This document shows positions 43,179 to 46,196 of a stretch of DNA of 64,000 bases, one piece after another. The DNA is from Planctomycetota bacterium (lineage in GTDB: Bacteria; Planctomycetota; UBA1135; UBA2386). Made by a program: the position numbers and the translations under genes. Below the pieces are notes generated by a model that saw only the letters and a list, made by a program, of their open reading frames with translations, ran no database searches and was not told the DNA's origin. Location of the stretch: assembly GCA_965223545.1 (NCBI GenBank), contig OZ245006.1:7968001-8032000 (forward strand), written 5' to 3'. Numbering within the stretch: the first letter of the stretch is position 1; the number at the start of each line of letters is the position of its first letter.

Positions 43179-43565
43179 ATGAAGCGAGTGACAGGGATCG
43201 GCGGCATCTTCTTCAAGGCCAGGGACCCAGCCGCGCTCCAGGCTTGGTACAAGCGCCACCTCGGCATCGATGTCCAAGAGTGGGGAGGAACGGCCTTCTC
43301 CTGGGCAGGCCCGGACGGCAAGCCGGCGGGTGGGACGACGGTTTGGTCCATCGGTCCGCAAGAGGACGGGCGGTTCGCACCGGGCACCGCCCCCTTCATG
43401 ATCAACTATCGCGTGGAGGATCTGCACGCTCTGCGCGCGGCGCTCGTGGCCGAAGGCTGCAACGTCCTCGACCAAGTCGAGGACGGCGAGTTCGGCATCT
43501 TTGGATGGGTGGTCGACCCCGAGGGTAACAAGGTCGAGCTGTGGCAGCCGCCTACGGGGCAGTGA
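43179..43565 (+). CDS. VOC/glyoxalase family protein
   Basis: 'MKRVTGIGGIFFKARDP', 'FMINYRVEDL', 'FGWVVDPEGNKVELWQP'. Confidence 0.93.
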   Translation: MKRVTGIGGIFFKARDPAALQAWYKRHLGIDVQEWGGTAFSWAGPDGKPAGGTTVWSIGPQEDGRFAPGTAPFMINYRVEDLHALRAALVAEGCNVLDQVEDGEFGIFGWVVDPEGNKVELWQPPTGQ

Positions 43566-43747
43566 GCGTCCGGGGCCGACAATCTTCGTGTGGCGACAAC
43601 ACTTCCGAAAGGCCGGTTGTCGTCAGGGCTTCGACACCGCAACTCCCGGCCGCTCGAAAGCAACACTGGCGTCTACGCTCAGCGCCGCCGCCCGGGACCG
43701 CTGGAATCGCGGGCTCCGCTCCTGTCGCGGCGCGCTCGGCCTTTGAT
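43563..43747. repeat. Copy A of a ~200-bp structured tandem repeat, interrupted at its 3' end by the IS110 element
   Basis: Collinear with 45900-46083 through shared blocks TGAGC, AATCTTCG, GGCGACAAC, TTCGACA, CTCCCGG, CTCGAA, AACACTGGC, GCTCAGCGC, GTCGCGG, CGCTC, TTTG. Confidence 0.85.
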
Positions 43748-43760
43748 ATCTCCTAAGTCA

Positions 43761-43766
43761 TGTCAA
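43761..43766 (-). promoter_or_regulatory. Outward-facing TTGACA (-35-like) hexamer in the IS right end
   Basis: Exact TTGACA on the minus strand, 13 nt before the AT core. This is the arrangement known for IS110 junction promoters. Confidence 0.5.
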
Positions 43767-43808
43767 GGGGTTTTCGCTGGGGCTCGACATCGCGTGTGCA
43801 CGGCTTGT

Positions 43809-45311
43809 TCAGGACTCTTCCACAAGACCAGGGAAGTGTTCTTGCATGAGATCACCGATCGGGTGAGGTTGACGTGGGGATTCCACGGCCAGGCCTGTGG
43901 CGTCCATTGGGCGGCCACTCAAGTCCCTCGTCGTCGGAGTCCCCACTCGTCCCTGTCGCCGTTGGTCGCGCTCATGCCGCTGTGGCGCGACGATGCTGCG
44001 CGTGAACTTGGCTGCGATGAGCGCGCGCGCGGCAACCTTCGTGAGCTCGTTGCCGTCGGCGTCTCGCAGGACGTAGCGGACTTGCGTCGACGCCGGCTTG
44101 TCATCGGCGCGCTGGCTGTCGCGACGCTTCAGGAGGGCGTAGACGCGGCGCGCCATCTTGCCAGCCAATGCGATGAGGATGAGGTTGTGGTGATCACCTG
44201 CGGCGTAGCGGCGAGCGTAGTACGCCGCGAAATCCGGATCCCACTGGCGAGCGACGTCAGCTGCTAGGTAGAGGTACTTCTTGAGTACTCGTTGGCCGGT
44301 TTTGGTGATTGGCATCGAGGGGTCGCTCATGCCCGTCTGCTTCCGGCGTGGACACAGTCCGCAGTAGCTCACGAACTTCTTGCCGTTCGAGAACCGCGCG
44401 ATGTCGCCTACCAAGGCTTCGATGGCCGCAGCGATCGTGGGACCGACGCCGCGCAGTTGCTCGAGTGTTCGGTCAGGATCGACGCCCAGGTAGAGCTTCT
44501 TGATCTTTGCGTCGAGCTTGCGAACGTCCGTGTTCTTGCGCTCGATCTCATCCAGCTCGTACACCACATCCTCTTGGATGGCCTCGTAGTCGAACGGCAT
44601 CTGCCCCGCAGCTCGCAGCTCAGCGTAGTACTCGGCGGCCTGTCGGCAGGACTCGAGCACGCGGTCGACCAAGCACGGGTCATGCGTTCCCTTGGATCGC
44701 TTCGTCAAGAAGCGCTCCAAGCGACTCTTCCCAAGGCCGACCGCTTTCACCGGATCGACGTAGCGCCGCAGAAACCCCATCTTAGCGGCACTGAACTTCT
44801 CTGCCCCCAAGGCCTTCATGAGGCTGGGATTCGCCAGTACCAGTATCGCGTGCACACGACGCTTGTGGTCGCTGAGCTCGCGCGCCAACCGCTCACGCCG
44901 CTTCACGAGTCGACGGATCGTCGTCTCGTCGGCAGTTGGAACACGCAGCTGGTGGACGCCCTTTGGATCCATCTGCGGCAGACGCGCAGCGGCCTCGGCG
45001 TCTACTACGTCGGTTTTGGTGTGCTTGCTATAGAACTTCCGCAGGTCGCTCAGCTTCTGTGGTTTGCTCACGTAGATCTGGAACCCTGCGGCGTTCACGT
45101 GCGCCGCGATGGGCAGCCACGCCAACCCCGTTGGTTCCATCACGAAGCTCACCGGACCCTCGGCACCTTCCTGTGCACGGCGCAGCAGAAGGTCAATACC
45201 CTCACGGCTGTTCTCGACTGAAAACGGTCTGCCCCGAGACTTCGCACCATCCAGAACGACGGCTCGGTGCTTGCTCCTCAAGCCGAGATCCAATCCAACG
45301 AATCGATTCAT
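43809..45311 (-). CDS. IS110 family transposase/recombinase (DEDD RuvC-like plus Tnp20 domain), 500 aa
   Basis: 'FVGLDLG' (D), 'VMEPTG' (E), 'KTDVVDA' (D,D), 'LRGVGPTIAA', 'GDIARF', 'YCGLCPRRKQTG'. RBS GGAGG upstream. Confidence 0.95.
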   Translation of the reverse strand: MNRFVGLDLGLRSKHRAVVLDGAKSRGRPFSVENSREGIDLLLRRAQEGAEGPVSFVMEPTGLAWLPIAAHVNAAGFQIYVSKPQKLSDLRKFYSKHTKTDVVDAEAAARLPQMDPKGVHQLRVPTADETTIRRLVKRRERLARELSDHKRRVHAILVLANPSLMKALGAEKFSAAKMGFLRRYVDPVKAVGLGKSRLERFLTKRSKGTHDPCLVDRVLESCRQAAEYYAELRAAGQMPFDYEAIQEDVVYELDEIERKNTDVRKLDAKIKKLYLGVDPDRTLEQLRGVGPTIAAAIEALVGDIARFSNGKKFVSYCGLCPRRKQTGMSDPSMPITKTGQRVLKKYLYLAADVARQWDPDFAAYYARRYAAGDHHNLILIALAGKMARRVYALLKRRDSQRADDKPASTQVRYVLRDADGNELTKVAARALIAAKFTRSIVAPQRHERDQRRQGRVGTPTTRDLSGRPMDATGLAVESPRQPHPIGDLMQEHFPGLVEES

Positions 45312-45505
45312 GTCCCCTCCATGTTCAACGAGTGAGTGTCGACGAGAGGACTCTCCCTACCCGCGCAGTCCGCCTGAGGAGGCGAGTCGCCAAAACGGTT
45401 CGTGTTTCGGGGCCGTGATTTCTCACGCCGCCAATCTCCTAAATCGGGTCCCCCACGCGGGAGGAGAGTCGCAGAACCAAATGAGGGGCCGCTCGAAGCG
45501 CCACC
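45312..45505 (-). ncRNA. Candidate bridge/seek RNA in the IS110 5' non-coding end
   Basis: Long stem 45349-45365 / 45456-45470, hairpin 45371-45384, and an internal near-copy of the donor junction at 45426-45442. Transcript ends unknown. Confidence 0.65.
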
Positions 45506-45685
45506 ATTGCGGCAGATCGCGAAACCTCTCCGTCGCACGCCGGGGGACCCTAAGCTCTCTTGCGGCCGATGACCAGACTCCCGACACGACTCCTGCGGCT
45601 GCACCATCGCGCGAGTCTTCCACACCGCTACGGCGCGACGGGTGTGGAGAACTCTAGCTTCGCAGATCATGGAACCACACATACC

Positions 45686-46104
45686 GTTGCGGCCCCGGCC
45701 GCGCTGAGCCTCCGGCGCCTCGAATCTTCGAGCTGCGACAACATTTTCTAGGCGACGCCGCTGCCATGGCAAAGTCGCCGCCGCGCCGGAGGCTCGGAGA
45801 GACAGTGCCTCCTGGCTCAGCGCGGCGGCGGATTGGTCGGACCTTCCAAACCGCTCCGGCGAGAGCGGCATCCGAGTTTGGTTGCGGCCGTGGCCGCGCT
45901 GAGCCTCAGGGTCCGCAAATCTTCGCGCGGCGACAACCTTTCGGAAGGCTCGATGCCGCTGGAACTTCGACAACGCAGCTCCCGGAGGCTCGAAGACAAC
46001 ACTGGCCTCTGGGCTCAGCGCGGCCGCCGGCGACCGCGGGACCCGCGACCGACGCTCGGGTCGCGGAACGCTCCGTGTTTGGTTGCGGCCTCGACCGCGC
46101 TGAG
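45686..46104. repeat. Copies B (45686-45880), C (45881-46081) and partial D (46082-46104) of the ~200-bp structured repeat
   Basis: GTTGCGGCC..(G/A)CCGCGCTGAG recurs at 45686, 45881 and 46082 (periods 195 and 201). Each full unit has nested inverted repeats. Confidence 0.88.
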
Positions 46105-46196
46105 GGGCGGCGTCCGCGAATGAAGAGAGTGGCCGAGAGCGCGAGCGGCGAATGAGTATCCGATTGTCACGCCGCGGTCGATCGTTCGACGCGCGG

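Follow-up and report, generated by a model that had tools for sequence, protein, structure and literature searches.

The locus raises the question of how an RNA encoded beside an insertion-sequence recombinase would direct that enzyme to its sites: through a single contiguous guide copying the element's own circle junction on one strand, as a preliminary description of 45312-45505 had proposed, or through guides split between two loops, as in IS621. The locus was analysed within a 64,000-nucleotide stretch of a Planctomycetota genome (the window), and coordinates below are those of the window unless a contig is named, with (-) marking the minus strand. Our best explanation, to which we give a probability of about 0.85, is that an active or recently active IS110-group element carries a two-loop, split-guide RNA in its 374-bp left end and inserts at the host-repeat sequence GCCGCAAC/CAAA (the slash marking the point of insertion). 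Judged by sequence, the element belongs to the IS110 group and is IS621-like in its working, its left-end RNA is a two-loop IS110 bridge RNA with split guides of the IS621 type, and it departs from IS621-type elements in three features: the shared core, the separate stems and the catalytic serine.

The element, its ends and its target were placed as follows:

43746..45685 (-), IS110-group insertion sequence of 1940 bp without target duplication, with 11 exact copies
45678..45685 (-), true left end, starting GGTATG (right donor GGT), from copy comparison and homologues
43746..43756 (-), right end, made up of the left donor TTAGGAGAT (43756-43748) and the element's own crossover bases AT (43747-43746), in 11/11 copies
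45686..45694 (-), left target flank GGCCGCA plus the target crossover bases AC (45687-45686), in 11/11 copies, the first G excepted
43742..43745 (-), right target flank CAAA, in 11/11 copies
45686..46121, host extragenic repeat array with a unit of about 195-201 bp, which carries the target and has empty sites at 45877 and 46078

The genome holds 11 full-length copies that are 100% identical over 1940 bp; recent movement follows, and from the sequences this identity is read as a recent burst. Every copy is bordered by GCCGCAAC on the left and CAAA on the right with no duplicated base (11/11), and removal of 43746-45685 in silico restored GCCGCAAC/CAAA at all 11 copies, the resulting sequence being identical to an existing empty site at 40/40 positions in 4 of the 11 and at 37/40 or better in 8. 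Divergence among the copies starts only past 45685 plus the shared target motif, and within 45508-45685 all 8 sampled 20-mers were found exactly 11 times, as is the element itself. The empty-site joint (43745 to 45686) is present in public contigs; the circle joint (45685 to 43746) is absent from the contigs of three runs, contigs being assemblies that drop rare forms. The left non-coding end measures 374 bp against 63 bp on the right, a trait of the IS110 group and not of IS1111, and no terminal inverted repeat appeared among the 25 longest inverted repeats listed. Another copy lies at C1:8049972-8051842 (about window position 81900, outside the window), with nine more besides.

Genome-wide, the target occurs at 106 sites in 77 clusters, 11 filled and 95 empty, against a chance expectation of 0.8 for the 12-mer; two of the 11 insertions have no repeat context on their left, and the 12-bp motif is still present there. 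Within the host repeat (43534-43745 and 45686-46121), inverted GCTCAGCGCGGCC arms adjoin the target. The array is also adjoined by an ordinary glyoxalase-like gene (43179-43565, (+)). Elsewhere in the host genome a 461-aa reading frame recurs at about 22 places (for example C1:5180809 and C1:1013519) with weak similarity to recombinase residues 283-417, and is probably another insertion sequence.

Homologous loci were assembled for comparison (88 in total: eight plus the best 80 of 93), of which 41, together with the window, carried the donor-guide-like motif; four without a usable left end (L048, L073, L075 and L084) were dropped, leaving 38, or 33 after merging of duplicates. Guides were placed through RNA alignment anchors and ends through their own motifs, independently of one another, with the right end of L033 shifted by hand by one base. 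Permutations of the guides ignore kinship, and empty targets are known for this genome only, homologue targets being rebuilt from the flanks of one copy. Among 300 genomes of the same order, no relatives were found at E 1e-60 when the top four candidates per genome were scored. The closest homologue fetched (L031:660-1181, 58%) has a normal right end and no upstream guide region, and its left end looks, from its sequence, replaced or truncated. In seven more distant ones (L027, L074, L076, L082, L088, L096 and L102; 33-42%) the upstream RNA is shorter and of another kind and the end motifs differ; by sequence, their RNA would form a separate bridge RNA subtype.

The candidate bridge RNA of the preliminary description was upheld by sequence comparison as an IS110 bridge RNA whose guides could be located and covary. 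Its parts, in the order of the minus strand, are:

45617..45650 (-), 5' stem-loop, TCCACA...TGTGGA, from folding, its motif recognised by eye in many homologues
45519..45550 (-), arm A, which pairs with the middle strand M and closes the target-binding loop
45506..45514 (-), left target guide UGCCGCAAU, in the sense of the left target and pairing with the bottom strand
45485..45505 (-), target-loop internal hairpin, starting GGUGGCG
45475..45481 (-), right target guide UUUG-GU-U, the reverse complement of A-AC-CAAA and pairing with the top strand
45446..45474 (-), middle strand M, able to pair with either arm A or arm B
45434..45442 (-), left donor guide UUAGGAGAU, ending at donor position 7 and stopping short of the crossover bases
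45409..45432 (-), donor-loop internal hairpin, starting GGCGGCG, columns 169-200 showing compensatory changes
45394..45399 (-), right donor guide ACC-GU-U, pairing with the left-end GGT and the incoming target A-AC
45349..45382 (-), arm B, which pairs with M and closes the donor-binding loop (the long stem of the preliminary description)

Guides were compared with the ends and flanks of their own elements. The left target guide matched its own left flank at 6.83 of 9 positions, against 3.92 after permutation (0/20000 as high; n = 29, taken as the best of three registers with L065, L066, L067 and L081 left out for a shifted anchor). The last target position that this guide reaches varies by subclade (7, 8 or 9, with 8 in the present element), a register that a fixed IS621-like geometry does not explain, and its loop strand is 12 nt long in most elements. 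Agreement of the right target guide with the reverse complement of its own right flank reached 3.84/4 (permuted 1.33; 0/20000; n = 25), which bears out as a target guide the segment TTTGGTT that had been noted earlier as a weaker, target-like resemblance. In 31/31 elements the right donor guide changes with the first base of the left end (G with C in 21, T with A in 10; L042 and L081 left out). For the left donor guide, the match to the left donor was 7.33/9 when ending at position 7, compared with 3.4 and 3.0 at positions 8 and 9 (n = 24), and it covaries weakly (position 5 matches in 24/24 with two states, positions 4 and 7 in 13/24 each) because the left donor is nearly invariant. The covariation with ends and targets that the preliminary description had looked to was therefore found for three of the guides (left target, right target and right donor), weakly for the left donor guide, and not for the contiguous segment. 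At handshake position 7, the donor-loop base forms a Watson-Crick pair with the target in 16/31 and a wobble in 6, and the target-loop base in 16/31. An Rfam search returned no match, and single-sequence folds were no better than those of shuffled sequences (z -1.28 and -0.63).

Several observations behind the contiguous guide stand: the minus strand does read TTAGGAGATTGGCGGCG at 45442-45426 and TTTGGTTCTGCG at 45481-45470; the long stem is real (arms 45349/45463 and 45360/45456) and covaries in homologues; and the match of the 9-mer TTAGGAGAT to the right end (two occurrences in the window, at 43748 and 45434, against 0.06 expected) is not due to chance, since none of 100 shuffles reached two. 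The circle junction predicted from them was wrong, its left end having been put at about 45507, 178 bp short of the true end at 45685, a misplacement attributable to the RNA carrying GCCGCAAT at 45513-45506, which resembles the target flank. Because the element ends at 45685, GGTGGCG lies within the RNA as part of the hairpin that follows the left target guide, and the second half of the claimed 16/18 junction match, taken to join distant ends, compares RNA with RNA 70 bases apart. The corresponding hairpin after the left donor guide is on average 4.0/6 identical to the target-loop hairpin versus 2.1/6 to the true left end (n = 28), and the base 3' of the left donor guide is G in 30/31 elements. 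A single same-strand guide spanning the circle junction at 45442-45426, although a short likeness persists with the true junction (TTAGGAGAT, one gap, T, GG), has a probability near zero, since the junction used for the match does not exist, its downstream half is a covarying hairpin stem, and the change of the left end from G to T in 10/31 elements is followed by the opposite-strand right donor guide in 10/10 and by the contiguous segment in 0/10 (the base after the left donor guide is still G in nine and A in one). The architecture is that of split IS621-type guides and not a different one, and the contiguous guide as first framed carries no significance, being an error of end calling.

The ends also show that element and target need not share the crossover dinucleotide. 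In this genome, left junctions read AC and right junctions AT (11/11 each), and empty sites in repeat context read AC in 86/89 and AT in 0/89. Across homologues, the dinucleotides of element and target are equal in 12/25 and unequal in 13/25 (L042, which fits no simple end model, being left out of the core count); the element's own is AT in 23/25, and target dinucleotides found at the site in the clade comprise AC, AT, GC, CC, GG, TG, CG and AG. In 31/31 elements (permuted mean 11.3), the second crossover base of the target can form a Watson-Crick pair with both right guides; at the first crossover base both guides read A, and the target has A there in 22/31. On the protein tree, the crossover base of the target changes at least six times. 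Among the 13 mismatches, nine leave room for a G-T wobble against the T of the element, and in four a guide C faces that T. One of the genomes sampled (L023) holds a single copy of its element.

An alternative placement, with crossover between the two bases, a one-base core A, the C belonging to the left end and real targets reading AT, would agree with the A at the first crossover position of both junctions here and in both right guides (31/31). It is nevertheless very improbable: it is contradicted by the repeat's empty sites, by the 40/40 identity to existing empty sites in 4/11 copies after deletion of 43746-45685, and by the right target guide, which reads C rather than T. Blunt cutting of both strands was likewise considered and rejected, as the starred positions in the accessible part of PMC11208158 follow the bottom strand, giving a four-base stagger.

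An unmatched crossover fits chemistry already described, because IS621 exchanges positions 6-9 and integration by CazIS110 is dominated by the top strand. In the available text on IS621, top-strand positions 6-9 are swapped and positions 6-7 are naturally unlike (PMC13626964), the CT core being invariant and its T almost so among orthologues (PMC11208158, PMC13626964); that on CazIS110 describes integration mainly via the top strand (10.1101/2025.10.25.684509). The mismatch is also less surprising because PMC11187229, in the part available, maintains that insertion of IS110 elements involves no duplication, the apparent repeat being part of the element itself. By analogy with these systems, position 9 here would behave like a handshake base.

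The two loops of the RNA appear to compete for one strand. The 29-nt M (45474-45446) is complementary both to arm A (45550-45519, -43.9 kcal/mol) and to arm B (45382-45349, -36.0 kcal/mol), and over 30 distinct RNAs an average of 21 of its bases are claimed by one helix and 22 by the other, about 17 of the 29 being shared. When partners were swapped between lineages (one RNA for each of 14 lineages assigned by hand), each helix scored higher with its own partner than with a swapped one (0/20000 each), the own partner being the best in 10/14 for each. Changes on both sides of a helix were seen in 11/16 pairs for the 5' helix and 12/13 for the 3' helix, both exceeding slid controls, in structures derived from the same sequences and with the 5' helix only 75% paired in a fixed register. 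With the guides held open, the lowest-energy structure was the target-loop form in 24/30, the donor-loop form in 6/30 and a hybrid in none. Covariation of M with two competing partners suggests alternative folds, and we infer, less surely, a two-state RNA in which each molecule firmly closes one loop; exclusion may be incomplete because the other loop of each form may keep a closing helix of 3-6 bp.

This one-loop-per-molecule reading agrees with IS621 structures, in which the two loops of one complex stem from two RNA molecules, and with CazIS110 transcripts, of which 90% are target-loop-only RNA in the accessible text (10.1101/2025.10.25.684509). Three other arrangements were rejected: a three-way junction with both loops (the hybrid was lowest in 0/30 and within 5 kcal/mol in 4), direct pairing of arm A with arm B (weak, own partner best in 5/14), and a fold switch acting on the ribosome-binding site (which the target form left more accessible in just 12/29). 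For that site, computed accessibility averages 0.22 and 0.31 in the two folds, both low values. A CCUC-rich stretch 3' of arm B (45345-45312, (-)) complements the ribosome-binding site in many homologues, and on this modelling may simply damp translation.

The protein encoded downstream of the RNA and the sequence that could drive RNA expression have the following coordinates:

43809..45311 (-), DEDD recombinase of 500 aa with a C-terminal extension and D8/E59/D101/D104, from domains, 69 homologues and fold
44334..44336 (-), codon of Thr326, which a profile alignment sets against the IS621 catalytic Ser241 (RYESG in IS621 and ISCro4)
43761..43766 (-), -35 box TTGACA, 17 nt from a -10-like box once the ends are joined, the 17-nt spacer occurring in 26/26 elements

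Both IS110 domains were recognised in the recombinase (PF01548, DEDD RuvC, E 1.9e-24; PF02371, E 4e-21), and an AlphaFold model built from the 69 homologues (pLDDT 88) matched IS621 and ISCro4 best. Residue 326 is Thr in 22/69 homologues and Ser in 47/69, with nothing else, and is followed by an invariant Gly; in IS621, Ser241 is the residue of the covalent intermediate. Thr326 is by sequence the likeliest nucleophile, a less certain point than the guides, with residue 329 (Ser in 53/69) as the rival candidate, and the threonine reads as a conservative variant inside the clade with no sign of a separate family. Past PF02371, a C-terminal extension that IS621 lacks (residues about 400-500; 43812-44120, (-)) has conserved helices, a disordered tail and three residues invariant in the 69 (A428, R429 and R438), and could contact the longer RNA stems. 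The sole other IS110 recombinase examined in the genome (L022, about four copies, C1:615167 and three further places) has FASG at its catalytic loop and is about 33% identical to this one over one stretch; it seemingly adjoins the same host repeat, one copy lying about 900 bp from a copy of the present element.

In all 26 elements with both ends, as read from sequence, a spacer of 17 nt separates the -35 box from a hexamer that starts with TAT. The hexamer here, TATGTG (45683-45678, (-)), is weak at 3/6, TATAAT occurring in three homologues, and a sigma-70 scan of the linear element found no promoter. Immediately 5' of arm A lies a putative internal promoter (45551-45545, (-); also in L052, L055, L057 and L062-L067), which reads TATAAT or TATATT in distant subclades and TAGGGT or TAAGGT in near ones; it could drive transcription of the RNA while the element is integrated.

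From IS621 and CazIS110, the following course may be proposed. Joining of the ends would form a TTGACA-17-TATGTG promoter; recombinase dimers would bind the target and donor loops; and the top strands would be cut right after the two crossover bases and exchanged. The top strand would dictate the product, so that every insertion has AC from the target at its left junction and AT from the element at its right. A shared core would be unneeded, both right guides being tuned to the target's second crossover base, and with this tuning the donor loop would gain its full pair only after strand exchange, in the manner of a handshake. Less surely, M would switch between the 5' and the 3' arm as its partner, so that one RNA molecule firmly closes one loop at a time, and Thr326 would act as nucleophile.

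The competitor that survives best accepts the ends and guides and denies the rest: a wholly ordinary bridge element, in which the mismatch is tolerated drift, the second helix is a folding aid or a processing stem and functionally meaningless, as is the threonine, and nearby Ser329 is the nucleophile. We consider this quite possible, at somewhat less than even odds. The crossover data are divided, as 9/13 mismatches are G-T wobbles, and the accessible part of PMC11187229 already argues for no duplication with the apparent repeat being the element's, yet a guide C faces the element's T in the other 4/13. As to the second helix, the structures counted were drawn from the very sequences on which they were scored, and since 24/30 RNAs reach their lowest energy in the 5'-arm form, the other may be rare; both helices nonetheless pass the partner swap over 14 lineages (own best in 10/14 each), and the 3' helix changed on both sides in 12/13 pairs. 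For the nucleophile, Ser at 329 in 53/69 has to be set against column 326, where Ser or Thr alone occurs in 69/69 before an invariant Gly.

The wider alternative to the ordinary-element view is that this clade of recombinases of about 500 aa has a bistable RNA and no fixed or shared crossover dinucleotide, with many members cutting via threonine, and so would form a natural split, core-free bridge system; we hold this tentatively and think it unlikely as a whole. If true, a shared strand closes either the target or the donor loop, each molecule brings one loop to the synapse, and the ratio of folds sets insertion versus excision. Guides matched to a target base that varies, in elements whose own base is retained, would extend the range of joinable sites, and the clade tests whether the core is a need for homology or just part of the handshake. 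An RNA unable to fully close both loops would show how two-molecule complexes are enforced, and one closing a loop at a time might tune direction; a threonine nucleophile, if true, would be a new catalytic state for the IS110 family. Current bridge editors are designed with CT or GT cores matching in both sites, according to the available text of 10.1101/2025.05.14.653916.

Comparison with known systems draws on the accessible parts of the cited sources. Literature searches, covering text outside figures, supplements and ISfinder, found no account of the shared-strand fold, the threonine or the unmatched core, and the one relevant match on unmatched cores concerns bases beside the core. COMPASS long-guide clusters (10.64898/2026.10.21.760802) likewise comprise bridge RNAs of diverse kinds, their guides being shifted or lengthened relative to those of IS621; this clade may be among its 86 models, and COMPASS may miss elements with unmatched cores because its sites are built round a shared core and imprecise boundaries are discarded. 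ISPpu10 (10.64898/2026.03.19.712850) and ISPpu9 (PMC12288879) are likewise multi-copy IS110 elements with one conserved intergenic or REP target, and the inverted GCTCAGCGCGGCC arms of the host repeat recall the target stem-loop reported for ISPpu10. The ISEc21 seekRNA (PMC11187229) and CazIS110-1 (10.1101/2025.10.25.684509) share with this element an upstream RNA in which the bottom-strand match lies 5' of the top-strand match, abutted ends and duplication-free insertion dominated by the top strand; target-loop-only RNAs are their commonest species, and no shared-strand fold, guide tracking of an unmatched base or threonine was found in their descriptions as available.

The closest counterpart is IS621 (PMC11208160, PMC11208158, PMC13626964), which has the same DEDD and Tnp domains (fold match E 1e-12, about 20% identity), a left-end RNA, a junction promoter and insertion into extragenic repeats. 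Its RNA likewise runs from target loop to donor loop, each ordered as left guide, hairpin and right guide, and its two loops are likewise pseudo-symmetric (PMC11208158); its right donor is TGTAT, where elements here have GGTAT or TGTAT. The differences, within the accessible text, lie in size, in the reach of the left donor guide and in the three features named at the outset. The IS621 RNA is 177 nt long, compared with a two-loop core of about 200 nt within the 374-bp end here, and its left donor guide reaches position 8, compared with 7. Donor and target of IS621 share an invariant CT core, whereas the target's second base here is C, T or G and often unlike the element's; the IS621 loops have separate stems (nt 34-98 and 110-177; PMC11208158), whereas those here compete for one strand; and the IS621 recombinase has 326 aa with Ser241, whereas this one has 500 aa with Thr.
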